Assembly (NCBI GenBank): GCA_022574775.1
Contig: JACZRI010000002.1
Coordinates: 74,303 to 138,302, forward strand
Origin: Patescibacteria group bacterium
GTDB lineage: Bacteria; Patescibacteriota; Minisyncoccia; Minisyncoccales; RBG-13-36-15
Direction of reading: 5' to 3'
Length of the DNA: 64,000 nt
Made by a program: the position numbers and the translations under genes
Notes under the pieces: model-generated
What the model saw: the letters and a program-made list of their open reading frames with translations, nothing else
Database searches by the model: none
Told to the model about the DNA's origin: nothing
In this document: positions 12,119 through 30,532 of the stretch, one piece after another
Layout of the letters: each line of letters opens with the position of its first letter
How positions within the stretch are numbered: position 1 is the stretch's first letter

Positions 12119-12393
12119 TAAGAGTACAAGGTTCGAACCAGAATAAATTGAGCGGAGCGAATTCAGGTAAGATTCGAGGCGCGAGGAATGACGCGATGCC
12201 AAAGTGCATCGTAAACGACGAGCAACAAAGAAGCTTACCTGAATTCACCCGCCTGAAGGGAAACTGAAAAATGGCTGATTTCTTTGTTGCTCCTCCTTGA
12301 AGTAGTTTCTAACTACTCCTTTGTCGTCGCGTCGCGAAATCACCTCATTTTTCAGTTTCTCAATCTGATTTTGGTTCGAATCCTGTACTCTTA
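12119..12393. repeat. GC-rich 275-nt rod-like palindromic element, copy A
   Basis: Termini TAAGAGTAC...GTACTCTTA with GGTTCGAACC next to each end. Nested inverted repeats include GAATTCAGGTAAG/CTTACCTGAATTC and GAAACTGAAAAATG/CATTTTTCAGTTTC. Colinear with copy B at 16502-16766. Confidence 0.85.
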
Positions 12394-15424: not shown

Positions 15425-15466
15425 CCTCCATCTCTCAAGCTGATTCTGTTTCAAATCCTGTACTCT
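15425..15466. repeat. degenerate right-end fragment of the rod-like element
   Basis: CCTCCATCTCTCAAGCTGATTCTGTTTCAAATCCTGTACTCT aligns to the right end of copies A and B. A second fragment, CACCTCACCTTTCAGCTTC, lies at 15121-15139. Confidence 0.6.
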
Positions 15467-15484
15467 ATACCCACTGATGACTTT

Positions 15485-16474
15485 TTATTTTTTCTTTTGT
15501 AGCCACAAATAAATATCTTCTAGCGCTTTGACCGCATCCCCCATTGAGATATTGTTTTGTTTATAGAGAACGTCTGTTATATCACCAGCTGCCCACATAC
15601 CCTCAATAGCCGCTCTCTGCGTTTTGTGATCAACTAAAATCTGTCCCCATTTATCTAATCCGCCTTTCCATTCTTTAGGTGTTTGTTCTGCCACCCACCA
15701 AGTAGGTTTTTGAACAGACTCCAGAAGATCTTTTAAAAAATTAGAATCTGGAATAGAGCCAATTTCTACGAATACCCCTCCAACTGCAAGATCGGTAATT
15801 TTTCCACTCGCTCGATCTTTATACTTTAATCCTTCAACAAATACTTTCCCATAAATTTCAATTGTTTCTGCGCCGGTAATCGCTTTAAATTTTGGATCTC
15901 TTGAGACTTGCTCAAGCGTTAAAGCGTCTGCTTTAAACTCTGAACCGAATTCAAGAAGAGTAACTGAAGGAGAATAAGCAAGTAATTGTTGAGCAGCTTC
16001 AAAACCAGAGTTCCCGCCTCCGATCACTACCGTATCTTTTCCTTTGAACATTGGAGCGTCACAGGACGCGCAATAGGATATTCCTTTATTATCAAGACGG
16101 TCAGCGCCTATAGCCTTCAGCTTTCGCCGAGAACTCCCGGCTGCAACAAGAACTGCTTTAGCTTGATAGGTATTTTCTTTGTCGGTAGCAACCTTAAAAC
16201 CGTCGTTGCTTTTTTTCAAAGATTTTGCCAGTTCCCATTCTTTTATATCAAGTATATCTTCAGCATACGCCTCAAGATGTTTCTTAAAACGTTCTTGCAG
16301 TTCAAGACCCGGAAGAGAAACAATGCCTATAAAGTTTTGGATGTCTTGGGAAACAAGGGACTGGCCGCCAAACTCTTTCGCTATAAGCACTGTTTTAATT
16401 CTTTTTCTGGCGGCATATACCCCAGCTGCGGTGCCTGCCGGCCCCCCGCCGATTATAATAAGGTCATACGTCAT
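15485..16474 (-). CDS. thioredoxin-reductase-like FAD/NAD(P)-dependent disulfide oxidoreductase
   Basis: GGGPAG dinucleotide motif and redox-active CASC. Carries an unusual insertion (QKPTWWVAEQTPKEWKGGLDKWGQ) before the C-terminal FAD motif. Confidence 0.8.
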   Translation of the reverse strand: MTYDLIIIGGGPAGTAAGVYAARKRIKTVLIAKEFGGQSLVSQDIQNFIGIVSLPGLELQERFKKHLEAYAEDILDIKEWELAKSLKKSNDGFKVATDKENTYQAKAVLVAAGSSRRKLKAIGADRLDNKGISYCASCDAPMFKGKDTVVIGGGNSGFEAAQQLLAYSPSVTLLEFGSEFKADALTLEQVSRDPKFKAITGAETIEIYGKVFVEGLKYKDRASGKITDLAVGGVFVEIGSIPDSNFLKDLLESVQKPTWWVAEQTPKEWKGGLDKWGQILVDHKTQRAAIEGMWAAGDITDVLYKQNNISMGDAVKALEDIYLWLQKKK

Positions 16475-16501
16475 AAAGTTATTTAAATGTTTAAGAGTAC
16501 A

Positions 16502-16766
16502 GGGTTCGAACCAGAGTCAATTGAGCGGAGCGAATTCAGGCAAGATTCGAGGCGTCGAGGAGTGATGCGATGCCGAAGCGCATCGTGAGCGACGAGCAAC
16601 AAAGAAGCTTGCCTGAATTCACCCGCCCGAAGGGAAGCTAAAAAATGGCTGATTTCTTTGTTGCTCCTCCTCGAAGTAGTTTCCAACTACTCCTTTGTCG
16701 TCGCGTCGTGAAATCACCTCATCTTTCAGCTTCTCAAGCTGATTTTGGTTCGAATCCTGCACTCCT
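16502..16766. repeat. GC-rich rod-like palindromic element, copy B
   Basis: Colinear with copy A. Carries paired substitutions that keep the stems (CAGGCAAG/CTTGCCTG versus CAGGTAAG/CTTACCTG; GAAGCT/AGCTTC versus GAAACT/AGTTTC). Confidence 0.85.
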
Positions 16767-17110: not shown

Positions 17111-18295
17111 TTAATCTCTGAAAATAGAGGGATTGATGCGGATTATTTTGTCGTCGTTAGGATTGAGATTTCCACGCCCGTCGGTGTTAGATGTGGTGAT
17201 GTAGAGATAGCCGTCAGGCCCCAGTACTACTGCTCGGATTCGGCCGAATTCCTGTCGAAAATGAGCTTTGATGAAAACTTTGTCTTCGTCAAGAATTTTC
17301 GCCTCGTAAAGAGATTCTCCGCGAAGACCGCCGAAGAATATAGAGCTATCCCAAAACGACGCGCCAGCCGGAGCCCAAGTTTCATTGGGACCCGATTGGA
17401 CAATTGGCGATATCATTTCTTTTTTTCTTTCGTTTCCCTGAATTACCGGCCAGCCATAGTTTTTGCCTTTTTCAATCAGGTTCAGTTCATCAAAACCAGA
17501 AAAGATACCGGATCGACCATGCTCGGTTGCCCAAAGTCGGCCTTCATCATCCCATGCAATTCCTTGCGAATTGCGATGGCCATAAGAATATACCTCATTA
17601 CCGAATGGATTGTCTGATGGAATTGAGCCATCGTCTTTGAGGCGAAGAATTTTACCGGCAAGGGAATTAATATCTTGAGCTACGTCTGAACTTCCAGCGT
17701 CTCCAGTAGTAATGTAAAGATAACCGTCGGGACCAAAAACGATGCGTCCGCCATCATGATGTGCCGCGCCAGGAATGTTGCTGATGATTATTGTTTTTTC
17801 TGAAAGACGGTTTCCTTCAAATCGGTAGCGTTCAACTCTGTTTTTGAGTCCGCTGCCGATGTTAGTGGTAAAATAAAGATAAAGCCAGCGGTTTTCTGAA
17901 AATTGAGGATGAAGCGCCATTCCCAAAAGACCGCCTTCTCCAACATGTTCAACGCCTTCAATGGTATAAGTTTGACCATCTTTGCCAATTCTCTTGAGAA
18001 TTCCGGGACGCTCGGTAACAAGCAAGTCTCCTTCTGGAAGAAAAACGATCTCCCAAGGGATTTGAAGATTGTCCGCAACAATTTCAATAGCGCTTTCTGG
18101 ACTTTCATTGACTTTTCTGAATTCTGTATCATTATCTACATCCACTTTCACGCCATCCTCGAGCAAAGTTTGTGTTGGTCTGTAGAACGATCTGAAAATC
18201 TGGTTGCGGTAAAGAATCGCGACTACAATCACTAAAAGGATTATTGTACCAAGAACAAAAGCTGTTTTGCCGAATTTCGTCATTAAATTTATCAT
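17111..18295 (-). CDS. PQQ-dependent sugar (glucose/sorbosone) dehydrogenase family protein
   Basis: TM anchor and beta-propeller motifs GLLGMALHPQF and HDGGRIVFGPDGYLYIT. Visibly higher GC than its neighbours. Confidence 0.85.
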   Translation of the reverse strand: MINLMTKFGKTAFVLGTIILLVIVVAILYRNQIFRSFYRPTQTLLEDGVKVDVDNDTEFRKVNESPESAIEIVADNLQIPWEIVFLPEGDLLVTERPGILKRIGKDGQTYTIEGVEHVGEGGLLGMALHPQFSENRWLYLYFTTNIGSGLKNRVERYRFEGNRLSEKTIIISNIPGAAHHDGGRIVFGPDGYLYITTGDAGSSDVAQDINSLAGKILRLKDDGSIPSDNPFGNEVYSYGHRNSQGIAWDDEGRLWATEHGRSGIFSGFDELNLIEKGKNYGWPVIQGNERKKEMISPIVQSGPNETWAPAGASFWDSSIFFGGLRGESLYEAKILDEDKVFIKAHFRQEFGRIRAVVLGPDGYLYITTSNTDGRGNLNPNDDKIIRINPSIFRD

Positions 18296-18421
18296 ATCAT
18301 ACCAGACAAATTACAACTAAACAAACTTGCCTTGAGTTCACTTGCGGTGGGTTTATCGCCCGTTCAATTCCATTCAGGACGATCTGTGTAAGGTTAAAGG
18401 ATCAAACTATAAGTATTTTAC

Positions 18422-18690
18422 CCTACCAAAAAACGCTCTCCTTCATAGAGTTGCGGCGGGTAAACCTTCTTGACGATTTGTAAGCTAGCTCCCCAGTTCA
18501 AAGCTTATTATAATTTTAGAAAACCTTGAATATATGTCTATGATGAAAGAAAAGCTGTTGGAAATTAAAAGGTTTCACAGAAGTCTAAAGTTATCTCCCA
18601 CAGTAGTAACTCGTTGAATACTATAATGTATTATAGAATTTGGCCTCTCCTGCGGGTATTGGACGACGTTAGAACCTCTCTTCAAGGTGT
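18422..18690. repeat. methyltransferase-array repeat module c4 (split by an insertion of about 150 nt)
   Basis: Terminator part plus GACGATTTGTAAGCTAGCTCCCC at 18422-18494. The remainder, CTCCTGCGGGTATTGGACGACGTTAGAACC, lies at 18648-18677. Confidence 0.6.
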
Positions 18691-18742
18691 TTTATGTCTT
18701 ATTTCGTCCTAAAACAAGCATCACCACCATATCTTAACAAAT

Positions 18743-19414
18743 TTATCCTTTTTTAATTGCTTCACAAAGATAAGAAATAGAGCTTAATTTAATAATTTTT
18801 ATATTTAACCCTGCTTTATTAAAAATCTTTTGTAATTTTCGTTTAGAAAATTGTTCCGTAATTATACCTTCCTCGGTAACAACTGTGCCGTCTTTACTGG
18901 TTTTCTCTAATTTCATTCCAGCTTTTTTATACTCTTTTAATCTTATTGGCAGTGCTTTTTCTGAATATACGCTAATGATTATTCTTCCACCCTTCTTAGT
19001 TACTCGTTGCATCTCTTTTAATATCTTAAGCTTATCCTCTCCAAAATCTCCAAATGTGTTCCCCATACAAATGGCATAGTCAAAAGTATTATTTTTAAAA
19101 TGCAGCCTTTGAGCTTCTTCAAGAAATACTTTTACATTCTTAAATTTTGATAAACTTTTCTTAATCTCTTTAAATAATCTCTTATTATTATCAATTCCTA
19201 TAATTTTTTTAGCAATATTTGCAATTGCTTTTATGTTTCTTCCTATCCCGCAACCTACATCTAAAACAATTGAGTCTTTTTTTATATTCTTTTGTAGATA
19301 TAAATTCTCTTTCTTAATCCAGCTTCTTATTGCTGGAGAGTGGCTTTTTACAACCTTCTTCCAGTATTTCAATATAGCTTCTTTTGATTCTAATTTTTGA
19401 TGGTTTTTATGCAT
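18743..19414 (-). CDS. class I SAM-dependent methyltransferase
   Basis: Motif I VLDVGCGIGRN and the post-I acidic residue pattern. Confidence 0.85.
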   Translation of the reverse strand: MHKNHQKLESKEAILKYWKKVVKSHSPAIRSWIKKENLYLQKNIKKDSIVLDVGCGIGRNIKAIANIAKKIIGIDNNKRLFKEIKKSLSKFKNVKVFLEEAQRLHFKNNTFDYAICMGNTFGDFGEDKLKILKEMQRVTKKGGRIIISVYSEKALPIRLKEYKKAGMKLEKTSKDGTVVTEEGIITEQFSKRKLQKIFNKAGLNIKIIKLSSISYLCEAIKKG

Positions 19415-19425
19415 TGTTTTATCTT

Positions 19426-19530
19426 ATCAAAAAACCGCCTGCTTGGCGATTTTCTGAAGCTAGCTCCCCCTACTGGACGCGTTCAGAACCATTGATTGGA
19501 AGAAAGTTAAAAGAGATTTGGAACCAATTA
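19426..19530. repeat. methyltransferase-array repeat module c1
   Basis: A-run/hairpin (CCGCC..GGCG) followed by the core AGCTAGCTCCCCCTACTGGACGCGTTCAGAACCATTGATTGG. Confidence 0.75.
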
Positions 19531-19586
19531 TGAGTATTTATCTGACTCCGTCTACAAGACGAAGTTAGAATTTATTTGGTAGGAAA

Positions 19587-20414
19587 TTACTTTTGACAAA
19601 CATACATAAAAAAGTCAGCTTCTGGATTATATCCTGGTTGATAATCACTATACTGCTCTATTTTTGAGAACCCAGCTTTTGTCAATAATTTCTGCATCTC
19701 ATCTCTCCTGAATGGATAAAGAATAAGATAACCTTTTTTACCTGTTGCCTCCTCGGTATACTGGAATTTCACATATTCATCAGTTATCTCAATTGGTCGT
19801 CCGTGAACTTTCTCACCACAGTAAACATATTTACCACTGTAATAAAAATTACCTTTAAGGATTTCTTTACGGTTATCCAGTATATACTGATAGTTTCGTT
19901 CATCAATAATAAGAATGCCGCCAGGACGGAGAATGGAACGAAATTGTTTTAGAACTGTTATCTGGTCAGACTGAATGAATAAATAAGTGAGTGAGTTCCC
20001 CAGACTCAAAACTGCATCAAAAGATTCTTTCTCAATCTCCTTATCAAGTTCTCTCCAATCAAGTTTTGTTACTTTGAGTTCAACTCCTTCTCTTTGAGTA
20101 TTTTGCAGACCTTTTTTAAGAAAAACTTTATCAATTTCATTGGCGGTTACATCAAAACCTTCTTTCTGAAGGAAAATAGCATCACAACCATCCCCAAATG
20201 AACTCTCAAAAACTTTATGACAATTATACTTCTTAAGTTGATTGACTAACCATCCATTCTCTCCTTTTCTCCTCTTACCCCAATCAATATAATCTCCCCA
20301 TATCTCGGTAAGAACTTTAGAGTTGTAATTCTCTGAAATAATACCTTTTATCTTGCGAAAAGGAAGAGTAACTCTACGCTTTCGAATGAAATCAGGAATT
20401 TTAAATCTTTTCAT
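19587..20414 (-). CDS. SAM-dependent methyltransferase, glycine/sarcosine N-methyltransferase-like
   Basis: The region LRPGGILIIDERNYQYILD resembles the GNMT/GSMT family. Substrate assignment is uncertain. Confidence 0.65.
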   Translation of the reverse strand: MKRFKIPDFIRKRRVTLPFRKIKGIISENYNSKVLTEIWGDYIDWGKRRKGENGWLVNQLKKYNCHKVFESSFGDGCDAIFLQKEGFDVTANEIDKVFLKKGLQNTQREGVELKVTKLDWRELDKEIEKESFDAVLSLGNSLTYLFIQSDQITVLKQFRSILRPGGILIIDERNYQYILDNRKEILKGNFYYSGKYVYCGEKVHGRPIEITDEYVKFQYTEEATGKKGYLILYPFRRDEMQKLLTKAGFSKIEQYSDYQPGYNPEADFFMYVCQK

Positions 20415-20530
20415 AAAATTTAATATATGAATTATAGTAAATATTTTACTTTAAAATTATCATTTTTCACTAAGAAAGTAAAGCAAAAAAAACTGTCCAG
20501 TGATTGGTTTTTTCTAATTTAACTTGGTAA

Positions 20531-20643
20531 AGCAAAAAACAGGACTTTTGGCCCTGCTTTTGCTGTCGAGCTCCCCCTATTGGACACGTTCAGAACCATT
20601 GATTGGGGTAAGATGAGAGAAGAATTGGAGGAATTAAGATTTG
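20531..20643. repeat. methyltransferase-array repeat module c2
   Basis: Core GAGCTCCCCCTATTGGACACGTTCAGAACCATTGATTGG preceded by an A-run/hairpin. Confidence 0.75.
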
Positions 20644-20654
20644 TTTTAGGATTT

Positions 20655-21335
20655 TTAAAAGGAGATATGAATTATAGCAAAATGTGGGGTTAAAAACTCA
20701 TTAACCACCTTTCCACCAAAATAGCTTTTTATTTCCTCTATCTCATCCGAAGTCCACCATTTTGATTGATAGCCAGTTTTGCTTCTAAATATACCTCTTT
20801 CAAAGTCTATATTCTCTAAATCTGGCTCTCCTGTCATTTCTTGAATTGCTGTATAGAATCTCATCCCATAATCTTTTAAAACTTCTTGACGTAATATTGA
20901 AATTATAACTTCACCCTGATATTTTTCAGCCACTGACTTTGTTTCGGAAAGCACCTTTTTGTAATCACCTTCTATTGTGCCAAGAGTATTTTGAATTATA
21001 AGTAAAACTGGATTTTTAACATCTCCTTTTTCTAATAATTTTGACAATCCTTGAATATCCCCTCCTATTGCTGTAGCGTTTTTATACATTTTTGTTCTTC
21101 TTTCAAGCTCTGCTATCATATCTGGGTTAATATCTATTGAGATAACATTTCTCGCAATCTTTACTAAATCTGGAAGGACTCTACCATATCCCGCTCCCAA
21201 ATCAATAAAGGTTTTATTCTTTGAATCTTTAACCTTACCTATTACATCCATTTCAGCTCTCTGCCAGGATTGAAAAACAGGGTCATCTATCTTTTCAACT
21301 AATTCTATATATTTTTCTGAGGTGTATTTTCTCAT
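20655..21335 (-). CDS. class I SAM-dependent methyltransferase
   Basis: Motif I FIDLGAGYGRV. No obvious similarity to the two neighbouring methyltransferases. Confidence 0.7.
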   Translation of the reverse strand: MRKYTSEKYIELVEKIDDPVFQSWQRAEMDVIGKVKDSKNKTFIDLGAGYGRVLPDLVKIARNVISIDINPDMIAELERRTKMYKNATAIGGDIQGLSKLLEKGDVKNPVLLIIQNTLGTIEGDYKKVLSETKSVAEKYQGEVIISILRQEVLKDYGMRFYTAIQEMTGEPDLENIDFERGIFRSKTGYQSKWWTSDEIEEIKSYFGGKVVNEFLTPHFAIIHISF

Positions 21336-21359
21336 ATGAGCCTTTAAAATAATTATATC

Positions 21360-21480
21360 AAAAAAAAGCCTGAGGCAACAACTCTCGGGCTGGAAATCGT
21401 AGCTCCCCCTATTGGACGCGTTCAGAACCTTAGATTGGAGGAAAATAAGAGAAGAATTGGAGATTTTCAGGATTAGGATA
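21360..21480. repeat. methyltransferase-array repeat module c3
   Basis: A-run plus hairpin AGCCTGAGG..CTCTCGGGCT, then the core TAGCTCCCCCTATTGGACGCGTTCAGAACCTTAGATTGG. Confidence 0.75.
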
Positions 21481-21496
21481 CCTATGACTGTTTAAA

Positions 21497-21529
21497 CAAA
21501 AAACCTCTGACTTCGTTGGAAGTAGAGGC
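21497..21529 (-). terminator. terminator of the 50-aa membrane sORF
   Basis: Minus strand reads CCTCT-ACTTC-CAAC-GAAGT-C-AGAGG followed by TTTTTTG. Confidence 0.6.
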
Positions 21530-21682
21530 TTATGGGTTATCTTCCCATCGTAACCACAGGAAAAGCATATATATCCCTATTAAACCAAAGAGGATTGCCC
21601 ACCCCGTATTCCCGTGAATAAAGTCAAAGATGGCAATACCAACTAAAAGAACTGCAAAAAATGGAAAAGTTCGCTTAACCAT
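21530..21682 (-). CDS. 50-aa two-TM membrane protein
   Basis: Own translation: MVKRTFPFFAVLLVGIAIFDFIHGNTGWAILFGLIGIYMLFLWLRWEDNP. AGGAGGGA-type SD-like sequence upstream and its own terminator. Below the ORF-track cutoff. Confidence 0.45.
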   Translation of the reverse strand: MVKRTFPFFAVLLVGIAIFDFIHGNTGWAILFGLIGIYMLFLWLRWEDNP

Positions 21683-21764
21683 GCTCTCCCTCCTTCCTTA
21701 TGTGAAATGAACTATACTTCTATCCAACCTTGCTACATCCTTAGTTTTTAGTCAAACAAAAAAC

Positions 21765-21826
21765 CGCCTTCTCCTCCATAGACGGACAAGTTGGCGGAGA
21801 CGATTGGTTGGTAATGTCCCACTTCG
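21765..21826. repeat. truncated repeat module abutting the histidine kinase stop
   Basis: AAAAAACCGCCTTCTCCTCCATAGAC...GACGATTGG aligns to the terminator half of module c4. Confidence 0.5.
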
Positions 21827-23176
21827 CTACTCTCTCTTCTCTGTGATAGAAAGAGTAATATAAAAAGTTGTTCCTTTGTTTTCTTCAGATTTAAATTTAA
21901 TTTCCCCTCCTGACTGGTTGATAATTACCCGAGCAATAAAGAGCCCAAGACCAGTTCCCAATTGCGACTTTTGTCTAGTATTTGAAGCACGATAAAAACG
22001 CTCGAAAATCATACCCCTCTCCTCTTTAGGTATCCCAATACCTTCATCTTTAATTACCACAACCAGCTGATTATCCTCCTTTTTAAAATCGATAGAAAGC
22101 GTACCACCCTGTTTATTATATTTTATTCCATTGCCTATGACATTTTGGAGTGCCTGTCTCATTTTCGACTCGTCGGTCAGGACAAAGATTTTTTCCTTGG
22201 GTTTGGTAAATTGAATAGTTACTTCATTAGCCTGGGCTAATGGCTCGAGGATATCAACTATATCTATAAGTAAATCGCAGATGTTTGTAGGCTTTTTCTC
22301 AAAAACAAATTTCCCCTGATCGATCTTGGAAAGATCTAAGAGATCTCGAACAAGTACATTCATACTTTCGGAAGTATCTCTGATGATCCTTGCTGTTTTT
22401 TTATTTTCTCCAGATATATTGCTTTCAAGTAAAAGCTCAGCGTGTCCTCTTATAACGGTAAGTGGAGCTTTAAGTTGGTGAGAGGCAATAGAGATCAACT
22501 GTTCACGGAACTGATCAGTAAGTCGTTCTTTTTTTACAATGCGGAATCCCAAAAAAATAATAAGCAGAATGCTTGTTATGCCTGAGAGTATAATAAATAG
22601 AATTGTTATCTGAACAGTGAATTGGGTTCGTGTGCGCTCGATCGCAAGTTGCTCTTTGGCAAAATCAATGCTCTTTTGAATTACGGGGAATATTTTCTCT
22701 TCTTCCAACGTCTTGAGTTGCTTCTTATGGGGCAATATTTCTTCAATAGAAAGACCCGTCCGCTTTCCCTCTACAATTGTTTCCACCAAAGAGATAACTG
22801 TGCGCTGATCTAGATCAAGCGCTGATGTACTTCTACCAAATTGATTTATGTGCTGATTGTATACAGCGATATTATCCTCAAAATGAGACCCGTACTCCAT
22901 AATACGAGAAATCTGCTTCTCAGCTATTTCAGTTGTAGGAAAATCAAGCACTAAAAAAGTTGTCATTTCAAGAAGTGTCAGAAAAAGCGCGCTACGGATA
23001 TCTTCAAGTATTACAATCTCTTGCGTAATATCACTCTCAACTCTTTCGAAGGAGTTCGATGTATTGAGCACACCCCAAATTCCAACTGAGCCGACGACAA
23101 AGATGAACAAAGCTGCGACAAAAAACCCAACAAGCAATCTTTTTTTATGTATTGTTTTTATAAGACTTGGTAGCAT
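21827..23176 (-). CDS. sensor histidine kinase
   Basis: Two TM segments, H-box SIASHQLKAPLT, and N/G boxes (GNGIKYN, GTGLGL). Confidence 0.9.
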   Translation of the reverse strand: MLPSLIKTIHKKRLLVGFFVAALFIFVVGSVGIWGVLNTSNSFERVESDITQEIVILEDIRSALFLTLLEMTTFLVLDFPTTEIAEKQISRIMEYGSHFEDNIAVYNQHINQFGRSTSALDLDQRTVISLVETIVEGKRTGLSIEEILPHKKQLKTLEEEKIFPVIQKSIDFAKEQLAIERTRTQFTVQITILFIILSGITSILLIIFLGFRIVKKERLTDQFREQLISIASHQLKAPLTVIRGHAELLLESNISGENKKTARIIRDTSESMNVLVRDLLDLSKIDQGKFVFEKKPTNICDLLIDIVDILEPLAQANEVTIQFTKPKEKIFVLTDESKMRQALQNVIGNGIKYNKQGGTLSIDFKKEDNQLVVVIKDEGIGIPKEERGMIFERFYRASNTRQKSQLGTGLGLFIARVIINQSGGEIKFKSEENKGTTFYITLSITEKRE

Positions 23177-23425
23177 TGGTATAGTGTTTTATTAAGTTCG
23201 AATTCTAAACTGCGGGTCGTTGAGTCTGTTATTTATCCTGAGTTTACCTGTAGTGAGTCTATCGAATCTATCGAAGGAGAATATGGATTCGAAAGAATCA
23301 GGATAATTATAGAGTGCCAAATCTTACTCCCCAAACATAGTTAAACATCAGAGTTATGTCTGCCTACGTTGTTACTTGTCAATACTGTCGGTAATTGAAA
23401 AGAAAAAGTTGATCCTTTCCCTTCC

Positions 23426-23701
23426 TCATATTTTACCCATATTTTTCCCATTCACACGGAGCCACAAATCAATAAACCGCAGTAGTGATCCAGATTTTCT
23501 GCCAACCTGACCCACAGCAAGAACAAAATAGACGCCATCTTCTAATATGGTAATGTCCCCTGGCTTTTTGAGATTGTGTCCGATACCATTAACGGCATCT
23601 TGAGTATCAAACTTTACCAGAGTTGGCTCTGTTGTAGTAGGCGTCTGATCTGTCGAATCAGAGAGTTGTACGTATATCGCACCCTTACCTGGATCTTCCA
23701 T
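23426..23701 (-). CDS. hypothetical 91-aa protein, possibly a truncated C1q/BclA-CTD-like beta domain
   Basis: Pattern GDITILEDGVYFVLAVGQ...IDLWLRVNGK resembles the first half of such domains and ends abruptly. Weak call. Confidence 0.35.
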   Translation of the reverse strand: MEDPGKGAIYVQLSDSTDQTPTTTEPTLVKFDTQDAVNGIGHNLKKPGDITILEDGVYFVLAVGQVGRKSGSLLRFIDLWLRVNGKNMGKI

Positions 23702-23818
23702 GGTAATGATTATGACATATTAATTAATACTCTCTAGTTTGTTATACCCTTTCCAGCGAAAATACTACAACCCCAAAAACCGCCATCTTGGAGATTGTTT
23801 GGCTACTATAGTAAGCAG

Positions 23819-23890
23819 CTCCGGGGGCAGGATTCGAACCTGCAACAAACGGCTTAACAGGCCGTCGTTCTACCATTGAACTACCCCGGA
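23819..23890 (-). tRNA. tRNA-Asn (GTT)
   Basis: Hand-folded cloverleaf: acceptor TCCGGGG/CCCCGGA, anticodon loop CTGTTAA, T-arm GCAGG-TTCGAAT-CCTGC. No encoded CCA. Confidence 0.9.
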
Positions 23891-24000: not shown

Positions 24001-25203
24001 CTAGTATTCTTTCAACTTTTTCAATCCTTTGTGCTCCCTGATTTTTTCCAGAGACTTGGCCTCAATCTGCCTAATTCTTTCTCTGGTTACACCAAATTCA
24101 TTACCAACCTCTTCTAAAGTATGAGTTATTCCATCTTCCAAGCCAAACCTCATTTCTAAAATCTTTTGTTCTCTCGGAGCCAAGTCAACCAGAATCTCTT
24201 TCATTCTTTCTTTTAGTAAAGCTCTTGCTGCAACCAAAGAAGGCGACACTTCTTTTTTATCCTCAATAAATTCAGCTAGAACGCTGTCTTCATCGCTATC
24301 CCCGACTGGAGTTTCCAAAGATACGGTTTCCTGGGAAATTTTCATTATATGATGTACCTTACCAAGCTCAATGCCCATTTCAGCGGCAATCTCCTCTGGT
24401 AATGGATCCCTTCCCAAATCCTGCAGCAACCTTCTCCTTGCTTGACTGTATTTTGAAATAGTTTCCACCATATGGACTGGGATTCTGATAGTCCTTGCCT
24501 GATCAGCTAAAGCCCTCGTGACTGCTTGTCTAATCCACCATGTTGCATAAGTTGAAAATTTATATCCCCTCCGCCAGTCAAATTTTTCAACTGCCCGGAA
24601 AAGACCAAGGTTTCCTTCTTGAATTAAGTCGAGCAAAGTTAAATTTGGAGATCTTCCAACATACCTTTTTGCAATAGAAACCACTAATCTTAAGTTAGCC
24701 TGGGCTAAGGCTTTCTTCGCCTCCTCATCCCCTTTCTCGATTTTCTTTGATAATTCTTTCTCTTCAGCCGCAGTTAAAAAAGAAACTTTTCCAATTTCTC
24801 TTAAATACATCTGAATTGGATCAATTTTTTCATCTATGGTTCTGCGCGTAACAGCAGGAACTTCTTCCACATCAAGAAATTCTCTTACCTCCTTAAGCTT
24901 AATTCCCTTTCTCTCCAAAATATCATAAAGATTTTCCAAACCATCTATGTCTCTTTCTATTTCTGGAAATACTGATAAAATTTCAGAAAAAGTTAAAAAT
25001 CCCCTTTCTTCGCCTTTTTTAATTAATGGTTGAATCATTTCAGGGGTGACTATTTTTTTCTTAAAATGGGGCCGTTTTACGCTTTTCTTTTTCTTTATTT
25101 TTCTTTTCCGCTTCTTCTTGAGTTTTTTTTTCTGAACAATCTTCCTTGCTGTTTTTTTCTTCACTCGTTTTATCTTTTTTTTCGCTTTTTTGTTTTTTTT
25201 CAT
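24001..25203 (-). CDS. rpoD: RNA polymerase sigma factor RpoD (sigma-70)
   Basis: Regions 1.2-4 are recognisable ([50 protein letters not shown]). Lysine-rich N-terminus. Confidence 0.95.
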
Positions 25204-25214
25204 TTTGGGATAAC

Positions 25215-27005
25215 TTAATCACTATTAAACTGCTGAGAGAGCTGGTTAAACTCTTTAATAAGAATATTTGTTTTTCCGAAATCTTTTGCTTCTTCTGCTT
25301 TCTTTATTTCTTTGGTAAGAGATTCCAATTTATCTTTCGCTACCAAAGAACAAGTTTCTTTAACGCATAGTTCAATTTCTATTTCTGCGTCTTTTTCTTC
25401 TATCTTTTCGATTTCAGCCTTTAAAAAAAGATAATTCATAAATTCAGCGCCATCTGAAGAAAGTTCTTGTTTATTCGAAAAATGAGCGAAAACTTCTTGA
25501 ATTTTTTGAGAAAAATTAGGAAGAATCTCGCTGTTAATTACTTTTATCATTTGAGGATATTTTATTATCAAGAATGCGAGTCTTTCTTCCAAAAGCTCTT
25601 TGCGGGATTTCGGTTGAAGAACTATTTTTTCTTCTTCAACCTCACTTTCTCTTTTATCTAATTTCGTTTTTTTAAGTTCCTCGGCGATAATTTCTTCTTT
25701 AATTTCAAGCTTTTTTGAGAGTTCTTGTATCCAATAAGACTGTTCAATTTTATTTGGAATTATTTTTATTATAGGCAAGAGTAGTTTGGAGATTTCTTTC
25801 TTACCTTCTGGGTTCTGTTTGTTAAATCTTGAGAAGGCGGTTTCAAAATAAAACTCTAAAATTGATTTTGCTGTTGAAACTAATTTCCCCCAACTTTCTG
25901 AATTTTCAGATATGATATCTGCAGGGTCTGAACCTTTTTTCATTGTAATCACCTTAACATTAAAACCGCCTGCTTGGGCTAAGTCTATTCCCCTTCTCGT
26001 AGCAGTATCACCCGCTATATCCATATCAAAAGCAGTCAACATATTTTCTGAATACCTTTTCAGAATCTTTAACTGAGAAGTGGTTAAGGCGGTTCCTGAA
26101 GTAGCTATCACATTTTCAAAGCCAACCTGATGAGAAAGGATGACATCCAAGTAACCCTCAACCAAAATACAAAAATCTTTTTTTCTAATTTCCACTCTTG
26201 CCTTATCCAGACCGTACAGAACACTGCTTTTATCGTAAAGCAATGTGGATGGACTGTTTACATACTTTGCTTCATCCTGAGTATCTTCCAAAATTCTTCC
26301 TCCAAAACCAATTACCTGTGAACTTAAATCAAATATCGGAAAAATGATTCTTCCTCGGAAACGATCATAACTTGTAGAAACTGATTCATGCGAACCAGCT
26401 TCGCCCGCGGAGCGAGGCGAGTAACTACGCGGATCAACGCGGAAATTATTTCCTCCTTTTTTAATAGCTAACCCGGCTTTTATAATTTCTTCCTTCTGAT
26501 ATCCCCTATTCGCCAAAAAGTCAGAAAGTCCTTGCCAAGAATCAGGGGCATAACCCAACCGCCATTTTTTTATTGAATCTTCTGTTGTTCCTCTTTCAAG
26601 AAGATATTTTTTTACCGCACCTGCTGTTTTTCCTCCCTCCAACTGTCTCTCGAAAAACTGGCAAGCAAGCTCTATTACTTCATAAAGCCTCTGGCGTTCA
26701 GTCTCGAGTTTCGGATCTTGCCTCTTCAGCTCAACCCCCGCTTTTTGAGCTAAAATCCTCAGCGCATCACCAAACTCCACACCCTCAATTTGCATAACAA
26801 AGTTGAACAAATTACCACCGGCATTACATCCAAAACAATGCCATATCTGGCGGGCTGGCGAAACAAAAAAAGAAGGAGCTTTCTCTGAATGAAATGGGCA
26901 GATAGATCTAAAATTAACTCCCGCTTTTTGCAGCTTGATATAATTTTGGATTACTTCAACGATATCCAGACGATTTTTTATTTCCTCAATTGGGGAAGAG
27001 ATCAT
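25215..27005 (-). CDS. dnaG: DNA primase
   Basis: Zinc-ribbon [13 protein letters not shown]...[10 protein letters not shown] and a Toprim region ([18 protein letters not shown]). Confidence 0.95.
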
Positions 27006-27101: not shown

Positions 27102-28151
27102 ATGAAAATCTTACAAATAGCGCCTCCTTGGATACCAGTTCCCCCCATTACATATGGCGGAACAGAATTAGTTATTTCCTGGCTGACCGAAGAATTAGTG
27201 CAAAGAGGGCACGACGTTACCCTTTTGGCCTCGGGAGACTCCAAAACCTCGGCTAAACTCATTCCTATCTGGCCTAAATCACTCTGGCGAGCGAATCTTT
27301 CAACTCCCCATGCAGTTTTTGCTTTGATTTATGAAAAATTAGCTCAAATACAAGAAGAATTTGATATCATTCACGACCACTGTGAATTCTATACCGCCCC
27401 GTTTTTTCCCTTACTAAAAAAACCTCTGGTTTCCACCATTCATCATCCAATGTACGAGGAACTCATAATTTTATTCAAGAAATTCCCCCGAATACATTAT
27501 GTGGCAGTTTCTAAAAACCAGAGGAAATCTGCTCCTGGAGTAAATTTTGTCAAAACTATTTATCACGGCTTGCCAATTACGCAATACCCCTTCAACCACA
27601 AACCTCAAGATTATCTTTTATGGCTATCAAAAATATCGCCTGGAAAAGGACCTGCTGAAGCCATAGAAGTTGCAAAAAAGGCAAAGGAAAAACTGATTAT
27701 TTCTGGAAATATTTTGAAAGAGTATGGAGATTATTTTGAATACAGACTGAAACCCTTAATTGATGGAAAGCAAATTCAGTTTGTTGGAACGTCAGATTTT
27801 GAGAAAAAAATTGAGCTTTTTAAAAATGCCAAAGCCTTTTTATATCCTGTCAGAAGACCAGAGCCATTCGGTTTAGTTGTGATTGAAGCAATGGCCACAG
27901 GCACCCCGGTTATTGCCTACAAAACGGGCGCGATGTCAGAGCTTATCAAAGATGGAAAAACCGGCTTTTTGGTTAATAATCAGGAAGAAATGATAGATGC
28001 TTTAAAGAAGATAAATAAAATTGACAGAATTGACTGTCGGAGGCATGTCGCAAGAAAATTCTCTCTAAAAAAAATGGTGAATAAATACGAGGCTCTTTAC
28101 AATACTATTTTAAAAGATTCTAAAAAAAATAATCATGAGAAAAAAACTTAA
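27102..28151 (+). CDS. GT4-family glycosyltransferase
   Basis: N-terminal GGTELV and a C-terminal EPFGLVVIEAMATGTPVIA...G.TG motif, characteristic of retaining GT-B GT4 enzymes. Confidence 0.9.
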   Translation: MKILQIAPPWIPVPPITYGGTELVISWLTEELVQRGHDVTLLASGDSKTSAKLIPIWPKSLWRANLSTPHAVFALIYEKLAQIQEEFDIIHDHCEFYTAPFFPLLKKPLVSTIHHPMYEELIILFKKFPRIHYVAVSKNQRKSAPGVNFVKTIYHGLPITQYPFNHKPQDYLLWLSKISPGKGPAEAIEVAKKAKEKLIISGNILKEYGDYFEYRLKPLIDGKQIQFVGTSDFEKKIELFKNAKAFLYPVRRPEPFGLVVIEAMATGTPVIAYKTGAMSELIKDGKTGFLVNNQEEMIDALKKINKIDRIDCRRHVARKFSLKKMVNKYEALYNTILKDSKKNNHEKKT

Positions 28152-28166
28152 AATTGCACAAATCTT

Positions 28167-28305
28167 CGCTTCGCCAAGTCTAACTTGGTTTCGCTCCCCA
28201 GACACCTCTCGGTTTCTGGCTCTCCTTCGCTCCCGCTCAGTCGCTGTTTTCCTACACGGGAAAACACCCAGTTTTCCCGACCCCTTTCTGCAATTTGGGC
28301 AATTA
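28167..28305. repeat. GC-rich hairpin element, copy in the GT1/GT2 junction
   Basis: Contains GGGAAAAC-ACCCA-GTTTTCCC (28258-28278) and is colinear in reverse orientation with 50895-51000. Flanked by duplicated GT2 5' ends (28135-28163 and 28368-28396). Confidence 0.75.
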
Positions 28306-28367
28306 ACTAAGTTTTTATATCACTTAATAATTTTTAATTTAGGGATTATTAAATATTCAAAAAAAAT

Positions 28368-29438
28368 ATGAGAAAAAAACTTCGAATTGCCCAAATTGCC
28401 CCTTTATGGTTTGCCATTCCTCCGAAAAAATATGGAGGAATTGAAAGAATTGTCTCATTTTTAACAGAAGAATTGGTAAGAAGAGGTCATGATGTAACTC
28501 TATTTGCCTCTGGCGATTCAAAAACGAAGGCGAAACTAATTTCGGTTTATCCGGAATCTTTAATAAAAGCTGAATACAACTGGCAAGATCCAGTGTGGAA
28601 TTTAGAAAATTTATCAGAAGTTTTTAAAAAAGCAAACGATTTTGATATTTTGCATTCTCATCTAGATTTCTGGACTTTGCCATTCCAAGATTTAACTAAA
28701 ACACCCGTCCTGCATACTTTACATAATCAACTTTATAAAGCATCTATAACTAGAGAAGGTGAAAGGAAACCGGCCAGAATTCAAATCTTTGAGAAGCACA
28801 AGAAAGAAACATCGGCTGTTTTTATTTCTAAGTCACAAAGGTTAAAATCGGCTGTAAAATTTCCTCAAAGCTGGATAATTTATAATGGAATAGATATCTC
28901 TAAATTTAAATTTAATCCAAAACCGCAGAATCATTTTATCTGGATTGCGCGAATTGATCCCTTTAAAGGAATTGAGAATGCAATAAGAGCTGCGGAAATT
29001 ACCGGAGCAAAATTATTATTAGCCGGCAGACTTGATCCAAATAAAGAGGAATATTTTAAAAAGAAAATTAAGCCTCGCCTTTCAAGGAAAATTAGATACG
29101 TAGGAGAATTAAGCCAAAATGAACTTTCTGAGTTCTATGGGTCAGCTCGAGCCCTTCTTTATCCCATTGAATGGGAAGAGCCATTCGGATTAGTAATGGT
29201 GGAGGCTATGGCTTGCGGTACTCCGGTAATTGTTTTTGACCGAGGATCTGCCAAAGAAGTAGTTAAAAACGGCGAATCCGGTTTTGTAGTTAAAAATATA
29301 GAGGAAATTGTAAAAGCAATGAAAAAAGTTGATCAAATTGATAGATTAAAATGTAGAAAAAGAGTAGAAAATCATTTCGCTTACCAAAAAATGGTTTCAA
29401 AGTACGAAAAACTTTACTATAAACTTATAAAAAAATGA
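28368..29438 (+). CDS. GT4-family glycosyltransferase
   Basis: EEPFGLVMVEAMACGTPVIV...GESGFVV motif. Confidence 0.9.
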   Translation: MRKKLRIAQIAPLWFAIPPKKYGGIERIVSFLTEELVRRGHDVTLFASGDSKTKAKLISVYPESLIKAEYNWQDPVWNLENLSEVFKKANDFDILHSHLDFWTLPFQDLTKTPVLHTLHNQLYKASITREGERKPARIQIFEKHKKETSAVFISKSQRLKSAVKFPQSWIIYNGIDISKFKFNPKPQNHFIWIARIDPFKGIENAIRAAEITGAKLLLAGRLDPNKEEYFKKKIKPRLSRKIRYVGELSQNELSEFYGSARALLYPIEWEEPFGLVMVEAMACGTPVIVFDRGSAKEVVKNGESGFVVKNIEEIVKAMKKVDQIDRLKCRKRVENHFAYQKMVSKYEKLYYKLIKK

Positions 29439-30532
29439 AGAAGCTTCGAATCGCCACAATGATAACTGGTCGCTATACTTGTCCTCCACCCAAAGGGGTA
29501 ATTTACGCTCCTATGGTAATTGCGAAAGCCATAGTTGAAGGATTAGTAAAAAGAGGACACAAAGTATTTTTCTTTGGTCCGGAAGGTTCAAATTTAAAGG
29601 CGACTAAAATAATTTCTGGGGGCATGAATCCTCTTTATGGCAAAAAAGAGCATGAAATTCTTCAAGGTCCGATGATTCGAGAAAAAGAAAGGGAGAAGAT
29701 TAAAAATTTATGGGACCAATATTTAATTTCCTTAATTTATCGAGAGGCTCTAAAAGGAAAGTATGACTTAATTCATATCCATCCAGTAGATAGAGTTTTA
29801 CCTTTTAGCCTCGCCTTTGAAAATATTCCCGTGGTTTATACCCTCCATGACCCTATTTATCCTTGGAGAAGAGATATTTTTCGAATGTTTCAAAGTAAAA
29901 ATCAATATTTTGTTTCTATTTCTAATGCTCAAAGAAAACCAGCTCCTGATTTAAACTGGATAGCAACAATTTATAATGGTATCGATTTAAAGTATTTTCC
30001 TTTTAAGCAGAAACCGAAAAACAAAACTTTATTTTTAGGAAGAATTTTGCCGACTAAAGGAACAGATATTGCAATTCAAGCGGCTAAGCTGGCTAAAGTA
30101 AAACTAATCATTGCAGGTAGCCCAAATAGAGGAGATTTCTGGGAAAATAAAATTAAACCTTTTTTAGGAAAAAACATTCAATATATTGGCAACGTCCCTT
30201 ATCAAAAAACTTATGAATATTATGGAGAATCCAAGGTAAGTTTATTTCCAATTCAGTGGGAAGAACCTTTTGGTTTAACTTTTGTTGAGTCAATGGCTTG
30301 TGGAACTCCAGTCATTGCTTTTGATAGAGGTTCAGCCAAGGAAATAATTAAAAACGGCGAAACTGGGTTTGTAGTAAAAAATTTGAGAGAAATGGTAAAT
30401 GCGATAAAAAAAATTGGTCAAATAGACCGAAGAGAATGTAGAACGTGGGTAGAAAAAAAATTTCCGATTGAAAAAATGGTTGATGAATACGAAAGAATTT
30501 TCTTTGAAATTTTAAAGAAGAAAATTAAGTAA
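29435..30532 (+). CDS. GT4-family glycosyltransferase
   Basis: EEPFGLTFVESMACGTPVIA...GETGFVV motif. ATGA overlap with the upstream gene. Confidence 0.9.
   Translation: MKKLRIATMITGRYTCPPPKGVIYAPMVIAKAIVEGLVKRGHKVFFFGPEGSNLKATKIISGGMNPLYGKKEHEILQGPMIREKEREKIKNLWDQYLISLIYREALKGKYDLIHIHPVDRVLPFSLAFENIPVVYTLHDPIYPWRRDIFRMFQSKNQYFVSISNAQRKPAPDLNWIATIYNGIDLKYFPFKQKPKNKTLFLGRILPTKGTDIAIQAAKLAKVKLIIAGSPNRGDFWENKIKPFLGKNIQYIGNVPYQKTYEYYGESKVSLFPIQWEEPFGLTFVESMACGTPVIAFDRGSAKEIIKNGETGFVVKNLREMVNAIKKIGQIDRRECRTWVEKKFPIEKMVDEYERIFFEILKKKIK

Follow-up and report, generated by a model that had tools for sequence, protein, structure and literature searches.

The DNA analysed here, hereafter the window, is a 64,000-nt stretch of contig JACZRI010000002.1 from a Patescibacteria group bacterium (GenBank assembly GCA_022574775.1, positions 74,303 to 138,302 of the forward strand). 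On its minus strand, dnaG, rpoD and a tRNA-Asn gene are followed by a histidine kinase gene, a small membrane open reading frame (ORF), three methyltransferase (MTase) genes, MT3, MT2 and MT1, and a dehydrogenase gene, and copies of a short module lie between these genes (Table 1). The coordinates bear out the gene order that a preliminary description, made from the sequence alone, had given from the kinase through the dehydrogenase. Judging from sequence comparisons, each module is probably a recombination-site junction left by an element with a large serine recombinase (LSR).

The centre of the module is a 29-nt core, GGTTCTGAACGYGTCCARTAGGGGGAGCT, with three exact copies in the window, all on the minus strand; none was expected from 100 shuffles. 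On the minus strand, the copies remain similar for about 35 nt 5' of the core; over 62 nt they are 79-89% identical. As described previously for the three MTase genes, each exact core (in c1, c2 and c3) is followed by a T-run and a stable hairpin, different in each case (-17.2, -16.5 and -10.6 kcal/mol; z -5.3, -3.5 and -2.2, respectively). The hairpin of the truncated module next to the kinase gene folds at -17.7 kcal/mol (z -2.9 against shuffles). The arms after the cores resemble tRNA-Asn trailers. In a repeat comparison, positions 19430-19456 of the c1 arm were 81% identical to the trailer hairpin of the window's own tRNA-Asn (23775-23801), and by hand count the c1 arm was ~85% identical to the trailer in the related locus L002. 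The c3 arm is of the CCCGAG type, like the tRNA-Asn trailer of locus L008 (AAATTTCCCGAGA...). Upstream of the core, at least three sequence classes can be distinguished.

Table 1. Features of the array and its surroundings in the window. A slash within a sequence marks a boundary discussed in the text.
Feature	Position	Strand	Basis or remark
dnaG	25215-27005	minus	window
rpoD	24001-25203	minus	window
tRNA-Asn (GTT), proposed integration target attB	23818-23890	minus	Rfam and ARAGORN; 3' end ...GGTTCGAATCCTGCCCCCGGAG/C
tRNA-Asn trailer with terminator-like hairpin	23765-23817	minus	arm of the same kind as after each module
tRNA-proximal cargo: 91-aa ORF (23426-23701) and orphan histidine kinase (21827-23176)	21827-23701	minus	kinase: Pfam HisKA, HATPase_c
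Truncated module: distal tail remnant (..CCAACCAATCG, plus-strand ..DW..), hairpin and T-run; core deleted	21755-21826	minus	sequence
Cargo: 50-aa membrane small ORF (21530-21682) with its own hairpin and T-run (21497-21528)	21497-21682	minus	weak Pfam RseC_MucC match
Module c3: recombinase tail remnant LPLLDAFRTLDWRKIREELEIFRIRIPMTV and stop, start 21403; core (putative P' half-site) 21401-21429	21401-21495	plus	in-frame TAG directly upstream
c3 arm: linker (ACGATTTCCA), hairpin and T-run, tRNA-trailer/terminator type	21355-21400	minus	folding
Cargo MT3: class I S-adenosylmethionine (SAM) MTase, 226 aa	20655-21335	minus	Pfam Methyltransf_31, Methyltransf_25
Module c2: tail remnant LPLLDTFRTIDWGKMREELEELRF..., start 20571; core 20569-20597	20569-20660	plus	core match and translation
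c2 arm: hairpin and T-run	20528-20568	minus	folding
Cargo MT2: class I SAM MTase, 275 aa	19587-20414	minus	Pfam Methyltransf_25, Methyltransf_11, Methyltransf_12
Module c1: tail remnant LPLLDAFRTIDWKKVKRDLEPIMSIYLTPSTRRS and stop, start 19464; core 19462-19490	19462-19568	plus	in-frame TAG directly upstream
c1 arm: CTAGCTTCAGAAAATCGCCAAGCAGGCGGTTTTTTG	19425-19461	minus	folding and tRNA-Asn trailer comparison
Cargo MT1: class I SAM MTase, 223 aa	18743-19414	minus	Pfam Methyltransf_31, Methyltransf_25, Methyltransf_11
c4a: decayed core with indels (18642-18676), GGTTCT-AACGTCGTCCAATA[CCCGCA]GGAGAGGCC; no hairpin after it	18642-18720	minus	sequence
c4b: arm keeping only the last 7 nt of the core, GGGGAGC/TAGCTTACAAATCG...TTTTTT	18428-18494	minus	sequence; c1-arm-like
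GSDH/PQQ-type dehydrogenase	17111-18295	minus	next after the c4 region

Remains of a further copy exist beyond MT1, but as two separate decayed pieces and not as the single module c4 proposed earlier. The first, c4a, was missed by the core profile search; the second, c4b, lies ~150 nt away, folds no better than shuffles and is probably the distal end of the array. The three MTases had been called unalignable by eye, and MT2 is indeed barely detectable in comparison with the other two; MT3 and MT1, however, share 28% identity (E 3e-12). From their sequences the three are at most distant relatives. The GC-content of the MTase cassettes is 29-35%, compared with 37-46% in the flanks.

The exact core was found in seven loci of GTDB genomes, most of them labelled Patescibacteria or Saccharibacteria, one only "bacterium" and one Humimicrobiaceae, and in more than 120 metagenome stretches. 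Searches of IMG/VR viral contigs with two patterns gave no matches, and a literature search with the core sequence returned unrelated primers only.

Diverged cores recovered by a profile search carried the variants CTA to CTG or TTA, TTG to CTG, TTC to TTT, GAC to GAT or GAA, and CCC to CCT, which are largely synonymous or conservative in the plus-strand frame L-P-L-L-D-[AT]-F-R-T. When about 170 copies were translated in this tail frame, a coherent peptide was obtained, LPLLDxFRT[ILVF][DN]W..[IV]...L..L..., so the conserved-looking plus-strand peptide of the preliminary description is real; an in-frame TAG lies directly upstream of it in c1 and c3. The synonymous share of single-nucleotide codon differences was 0.39-0.42 in the tail frame versus 0.15-0.31 in the other two, and the tail stop codons clustered at recurrent positions, giving fixed tail lengths.

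In the related locus L057, an identical core forms the in-frame end of a 328-aa ORF (...YRKPFDLLVKGLSRSNW/LPLLDTFRTF... and ...LLSNCTLDAGNLYPTYRKPFDLLVKGLSRSNW/LPLLDTFRTF...), and the c3 tail corresponds to the C-terminus of this ORF. The ORF matches the Pfam families Recombinase (1.4e-19) and Zn_ribbon_recom (2.8e-11) and is homologous to annotated serine integrases (phages and plasmids). Window-type tails also end the LSR C-terminal domains of the database proteins P0125, P0127, P0128, P0130, P0082, P0030 and P0121, which belong to two or three LSR subfamilies; P0125 is colinear with the L057 ORF through the tail (E 1e-16). A profile search with the three window tails retrieved 105 mostly tiny ORFs with the tail at the C-end among cluster representatives, indicating that orphan tails are common. 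Pfam gave no match for the LSR C-terminal fragments because this region has no Pfam model. Taken at the sequence level, these comparisons demonstrate that the conserved piece corresponds to the last ~30 plus-strand codons of an LSR gene (W/LPLLDxFRT[ILVF][DN]W..I...L...stop). The decayed 3' end of a lost gene, one of the origins suggested earlier, can now be given a name: the lost gene is an LSR, and the core stands in frame with recombinase ORFs elsewhere. In metagenome units of types B and C, the arm itself is a frameshifted remnant of ~35 LSR codons (KILLF..NL..KKPFSLIAKGLEIVK/LPLL), and the apparent terminator hairpin is formed by their KPF and KGL codons.

In type-B metagenome loci such as L009, L012, L031 and L032, a second, diverged motif (GTTGCGAAACTCGTCTACTAG) is located ~200 nt upstream of the main core. 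Its reverse complement reads LVDEFRN, comparable to the tail LPRQDDFRNF of P0004, and the motif has the appearance of an older tail remnant from a different LSR subfamily.

The conserved peptide with its fixed stops, together with the many small ORFs predicted by gene callers, could also suggest that the plus-strand tails are independent genes for ~30-aa proteins. This is extremely unlikely, given the stop directly 5' of LPLL in c1 and c3, a peptide that begins at CTC with neither a start codon nor a Shine-Dalgarno sequence, and called ORFs whose N-terminal extensions are mutually unrelated. In most copies, no long ORF covers the core.

A different alternative places the signal on the minus strand, where the module would be a structured RNA: a 3'-untranslated region (3'-UTR) element, a small RNA (sRNA) with a promoter and terminator of its own, or a riboswitch-like leader or attenuator of the gene downstream. 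It would be compatible with the very strong conservation of a sequence that a variable terminator follows, with the -10-like boxes upstream of some copies, and with minimum free energy (MFE) folds that pair the pyrimidine tract with AAUAGGGGGAG. Against it, no relevant Rfam family was matched in 18200-22000 even at E<=10, and only three tRNAs reached the gathering threshold in the whole window. The pairing of the pyrimidine run with GGGGGAG, noted in the preliminary description, is possible, but its invariant G-run partner cannot show covariation, and the run is no evidence for an RNA helix because it is the antisense of W and K/R/E/G codons (TGG AGG AAA ...). Substitutions track the codon structure of the opposite strand, recombinase ORFs run uninterrupted into the conserved piece, and after some copies tRNA-like fragments replace the terminators. 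These results count against the shared 3'-UTR or sRNA module considered earlier, and the leader or attenuator fares no better, as the neighbouring genes are heterogeneous and share no function. We regard the structured-RNA reading as largely refuted and highly improbable.

Several related candidates were rejected. RNA folding (MFE and RNAalifold, for the pairing of pyrimidine tract and G-run) was dropped, the tract being antisense codons and the G-run invariant. The -10/-35-like boxes upstream of the core (types A, B and C), on which an own-promoter sRNA would depend, lie inside the tail coding remnant; promoter-like sites in the region numbered 19, with 17.7 expected from shuffles. Triple ATTGGA repeats at 22-23-nt spacing, considered as response-regulator or arm-type sites, occur in some type-A copies only and correspond to the L(TTG)D, DW and ELE codons. 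A minus-strand leader peptide, MVLNASSRGS, lacks its start codon in c3.

The position of the array relative to the tRNA gene recurs in other genomes. The order rpoD, tRNA-Asn and then cores was found in the window and in L002, L008, L061, L074 and L117 (dnaG-rpoD-tRNA-Asn), and L046 likewise has tRNA-Asn followed by cores; these six related loci comprise two contigs from named Patescibacteria metagenome-assembled genomes and four from metagenomes. The genes separating tRNA-Asn from the first core are unrelated among all seven loci. This tRNA-proximal cargo includes the histidine kinase of the window, a ChaN-like protein, a glycosyltransferase, a serine hydrolase, an oxidoreductase and small unknowns, and in L008 a single-gene unit of 1.2 kb lies between tRNA-Asn and a core. 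The window and the six loci thus share the features of a tRNA-linked island, namely content that abuts the tRNA 3' end and varies among relatives. At the distal junctions of the window, no displaced tRNA 3' fragment was found; a recombinase tail is there instead, sharing only GGAGC with the tRNA. In L046, a partial direct repeat of the tRNA-Asn 3' end (GCAGGTTCGAGTCCTGCCTGCGGAG) is present ~75 nt downstream of the intact gene; by its sequence, this repeat is the classical displaced-fragment signature of another integration.

The relation of the tail to the tRNA becomes apparent at the last codons of the recombinases. C-termini of the LSR family are conserved up to a W, after which either the native tail or a translation of antisense tRNA follows; the latter endings include W-R.RRDSNPRP, SGREDLNLRPPEPHSGALP and GRLDSNQRRPKSRDLQSLA, with GRLDSNQRRP among these forms. 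A recombinase fragment in L134 reads straight into tRNA-His, and in L135 a native-tail fragment lies between two cargo genes on the opposite strand. On the tail strand, every junction starts with GCTCC, as seen where recombinases end (..tgg/CTCCCCCTATTGGAC..), in the window modules (..gctag/CTCCCCC..) and in antisense tRNA-Asn after the trailer (..agca/GCTCCGGGGGCAGGATTCGAACC..). In seven genomes this GCTCC is common to the tail and the antisense tRNA-Asn 3' end, and the junction similarity begins exactly there. Judged by these sequences, the LSR reading frame crosses its own attachment site: the native tail represents the attP-type form, and an antisense-tRNA tail is found where the gene abuts a tRNA gene in the integrated form.

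The core also resembles the tRNA-Asn 3' end, with GGTTC(T)GAA(CGCG)TCC-12 nt-GGAGC corresponding to GGTTCGAATCC...GGAGC and 5 extra bases in the core; this alignment score was reached by only 2 of 5000 shuffles. In the attP half-sites of serine integrases, the distal zinc-ribbon motif is shifted outward by ~5 bp relative to attB half-sites. The 5-base-longer core would fit this spacing rule, which is suggestive only.

Two further observations concern these junctions. On plasmid pS13 of Neochlamydia sp. S13 (L136, 135319-136400), a "recombinase family protein" annotated as 293 aa has the same C-terminal family, and its frame continues to ...KKRPKKW/GRLDSNQRRPKSRDLQSLAIATRRHP, an antisense-tRNA read-through tail, so the architecture of the W junction extends to plasmids of Chlamydiota. 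In L034, L039, L103, L115 and L118, a sense tRNA T-arm/acceptor fragment (GGTTCGAATCCTACCCGG/CTCCCCC) stands before the tail-strand core in place of a hairpin arm. The orientation of these fragments is opposite to that expected from antisense-tRNA read-through tails, and ARAGORN found no complete tRNA at these five junctions.

Across the related loci, the modules delimit cassettes. All cores lie on one strand in 44 of the 45 loci having at least two, with a spacing of 137-9469 nt (median ~2 kb). The cargo includes methyltransferases, toxin-antitoxin and restriction-modification systems, glycosyltransferases and surface proteins. Cargo is shared between arrays: L044 7063-7855 and L092 3787-4688 are 90% identical, the homology stopping past the shared core and hairpin, and L078 and L126 form a second pair that shares cargo and distal tail, with unrelated neighbours. 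Since both shared segments hold cargo with its distal tail, a unit consists of the cargo and the tail on its 3' side, which agrees with the earlier statement that the MTase genes are "followed by" the core. In L078 and L126, an LSR 3' end lies at the end of the array, convergent to the cargo; in L126 a tail core directly follows it, and in L078 no core was detected beside it. The arrays are polar and made up of mobile, functionally unrelated cassettes, as are those of integrons.

A generic intergenic repeat, either a repetitive extragenic palindromic (REP) or terminator-associated element or a DNA-uptake sequence, might in principle give a similar picture if it was spread by homologous recombination or selection of a host-factor site and its likeness to a recombinase tail were incidental. 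Such an element would fit the high density of the repeat in some contigs, where a copy occurs every 1-3 kb, and its consistently intergenic position beside terminators. However, many independent sequences carry it in frame and colinear with an LSR C-terminal domain; it is locus-specific in being downstream of tRNA-Asn in seven genomes, and has a strict polarity to the tRNA and to LSR remnants that would not be expected of uptake sequences or REPs. A widespread repeat without relation to gene boundaries had been named beforehand as an observation that would speak against a cassette array; the repeat is widespread, yet strictly polar and situated at cassette boundaries. We consider the generic-repeat explanation very unlikely.

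The explanation we favour is that the modules are attachment-site scars, as one of the earlier proposals, successive site-specific integrations, had it; the tRNA-Asn locus, the variable cargo and the LSR tail at the junctions speak for it. According to this explanation, the near-invariant 27-28-nt core would be the P' half-site, resembling the T-arm and acceptor 3' end of tRNA-Asn plus 5 bases, and the crossover would take place just 3' of the W codon, in or beside GGAGC (plus-strand GCTCC), which core and tRNA have in common. The tail would then correspond to the P' arm of attP and would be swapped for antisense tRNA upon integration at the tRNA 3' end, whereas the hairpin and T-run would represent a tRNA-trailer-type arm that probably also serves as an intrinsic terminator insulating adjacent cassettes. 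The array, consisting of the 91-aa ORF and histidine kinase, the membrane ORF, MT3, MT2 and MT1, was probably built by repeated site-specific insertion at tRNA-Asn, newer units displacing older ones away from the tRNA gene and each unit bringing one cargo gene with a tail 3' of it.

Several points weigh against the attachment-site explanation. No recombinase gene or fragment was detectable in the 64-kb window, so the array would now be either a fossil or reliant on a recombinase encoded elsewhere. Each recombinase ORF observed with the tail is truncated at its 5' end and devoid of a Resolvase domain; the L057 ORF is without the catalytic domain and its database relatives are 78-241 aa long. 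Consequently, no demonstrably functional enzyme is tied to the site. That no intact recombinase was seen is in part to be expected, since a functional gene, once integrated, would continue into antisense tRNA and not into the tail; word-indexed searches also gave few candidates. The position of the crossover is taken only from where the similarity starts. For the arms in the window, no origin from an LSR 3' coding sequence is recognisable, and a simple terminator scan did not list the module hairpins, although they fold well. Most related loci were found by exact-core search, which inflates the apparent invariance of the core; L128 and L135, found through proteins, still match it closely. Finally, canonical attP x attB recombination does not give multiple tail-O-arm junctions together with an intact tRNA-Asn-O-trailer site. 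Possible routes to such junctions are interchangeable arms, insertion of the attL x attR type, or decay after serial integration.

Instead of scars, the modules could be working sites of an active, integron-like platform, in which a trans-acting serine recombinase captures, excises and reshuffles single-gene cassettes at tRNA-Asn using a minimal att site of tail and arm. Tails would stay coding because a tail that lands beside the recombinase gene completes its ORF. Such a platform would account for strictly polar arrays with cassettes of 0.14-9 kb, ORF-less units included, for identical cassettes in different arrays, for LSR 3' ends at array ends and for the coding signature that persists in orphan tails, 105 of which were seen as ORFs among cluster representatives. 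In addition, the type B/C arms, which retain ~35 decayed LSR 3' codons, would form with the tail a complete attP-like site without the gene. On the other hand, an intact recombinase was seen beside no array, and none is in the window; cassette sharing is known from two contig pairs; and no serine integrase is known to recombine two like sites, or attL-type sites, unless a directionality factor is present. The window itself looks fossil, with c4 and the truncated module decayed, the distal tails of c1-c3 diverged and stops directly upstream. Overall, an active platform appears unlikely, though it deserves serious consideration. The wider proposal that Patescibacteria and other sediment lineages have a serine-recombinase counterpart of the integron, anchored at a tRNA gene, in which the P' half-site would serve at the same time as the enzyme's exchangeable C-terminal tail, each insertion would rewrite the C-terminus of the enzyme and selection would keep the tails translatable, is likewise tentative, and we would sooner doubt than adopt it.

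The integron-like cassette system of a new kind that had been suggested from the window alone holds as an analogy (polar arrays, shuffled cargo, a recombinase 3' end at the array end) but not in its components. No IntI-type tyrosine recombinase was found among the Pfam-scanned ORFs of the window, the associated remnants being of the serine type. The attC pair RYYYAAC/GTTRRRY is absent from the core by inspection (GTTCTGA and TCAGAAC do not fit), and the conserved part of the module is not palindromic with the arm. Searches of the literature on serine-recombinase cassette systems in the Candidate Phyla Radiation found nothing.

Integrons are nevertheless the closest architectural analogue. They form polar arrays of short, mostly single-gene, unrelated cassettes at a recurrent site, ORF-less cassettes exist among them, and in both systems the same cassette occurs in different arrays. 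Unlike integron cassettes, those described here carry their own terminators and promoter-like boxes, and the head of the array is a tRNA gene. The closest serine-recombinase analogue is the staphylococcal cassette chromosome (SCCmec and pseudo-SCC), whose Ccr large serine recombinases insert tandem cassettes at the 3' end of rlmH. In SCC arrays, a direct repeat of ~15-20 nt of rlmH holds the ORF end, recombinase-less units persist, and the frame is kept by a replacement 3' end; here the target is tRNA-Asn and the ORF spanning the site is the recombinase's own. Archaeal integrases of the SSV1 type are tyrosine recombinases with attP inside their own gene, which is split near the N-terminus. As in that case, the recombinase ORF crosses the attachment site and integration alters the gene end, with a fragment displaced to the other junction, whereas in the serine recombinase considered here no more than the last ~30 codons are lost, an antisense-tRNA tail taking their place. 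Cis-mobilizable elements (CIMEs), found with integrative and conjugative elements in streptococci, are also att-flanked units without a recombinase gene that stand in tandem at one site, with autonomous elements alongside; they belong to tyrosine-recombinase systems, number few per locus and are not single-gene cassettes.

In tRNA-linked islands and tycheposons, serial integration at tRNA genes pushes older units inward and leaves fragmented integrases and att fragments behind (PMC4383910; bioRxiv 10.1101/2020.12.28.424599), and 910 of 937 tycheposon-type elements use tyrosine recombinases (bioRxiv 10.1101/2020.12.28.424599). The array shares with Islander/TIGER islands and Prochlorococcus tycheposons the integration at a tRNA 3' end, a streamlined genome, accretion and accessory cargo. 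In contrast to both, its repeated marker is the LSR C-terminal coding tail/P' half-site, which has only GGAGC in common with the tRNA; in contrast to tycheposons, its units are often single genes and its recombinase is of the large serine type. The general phenomenon, accretion of a tRNA-linked island, is already known, and the present case is an unusual variant of it. What is distinctive is that the repeat is the recombinase's own exchangeable C-terminal tail/P' half-site, a tail mimicking the tRNA end, and that many single-gene units lack a recombinase while a single 27-nt sequence has been conserved in many lineages. Exchangeable-tail LSR cassette arrays of this kind did not turn up in literature searches.

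The analysis turns an apparent new RNA motif, with strong conservation in many metagenomes, into a recombination site, which would avert a false riboswitch or sRNA annotation. It also points to the tRNA-Asn gene downstream of rpoD as a hotspot of gene acquisition in Patescibacteria, a group with reduced genomes that are commonly regarded as poor in mobile elements. The cassette arrays would constitute a new reservoir of accessory genes, and the 27-nt core offers a simple tag for locating such islands and their cargo in metagenomes. Should an intact recombinase be found, the system would provide a compact natural example of attP/attB discrimination, with a T-arm target, a mimic expanded by 5 bp and a site-crossing frame.

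Exact-protein look-ups with the proteins of the window gave matches from the same organism only. In the Logan assembly of SRR12886643, from this organism, the short-read contigs L131 and L133 break at the modules, one stopping after the histidine kinase and the other carrying MT3 and MT2 only; the module repeats thus fragment assemblies.

Other repeats were noted elsewhere in the window. A ~270-nt repeat occurs in two copies (12119-12391 and 16492-16765) with 92-94% identity and has ~21-nt terminal inverted repeats that resemble a tRNA T-arm (AAGAGTACAnGGTTCGAACCA ... TGGTTCGAATCCTGTACTCTT). Its right end recurs as a third, partial copy at 15433-15466, so that a thioredoxin-reductase-like gene (15485-16474) is bracketed by 34-nt direct repeats. 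From these features, the repeat may be a miniature inverted-repeat transposable element or another tRNA-fragment att pair. On the plus strand (27102-30532), three GT4 glycosyltransferase paralogues in tandem have similar 3' segments of 273 nt. A 57-nt repeat (38303-38359, 40132-40188 and 40631-40687) forms the 3', stop-codon ends of three neighbouring small minus-strand ORFs (38305-38871, 40134-40604 and 40633-41130) near a T2SSE ATPase gene (42514-44205); these ORFs are probably paralogues and possibly encode pilin-like proteins.

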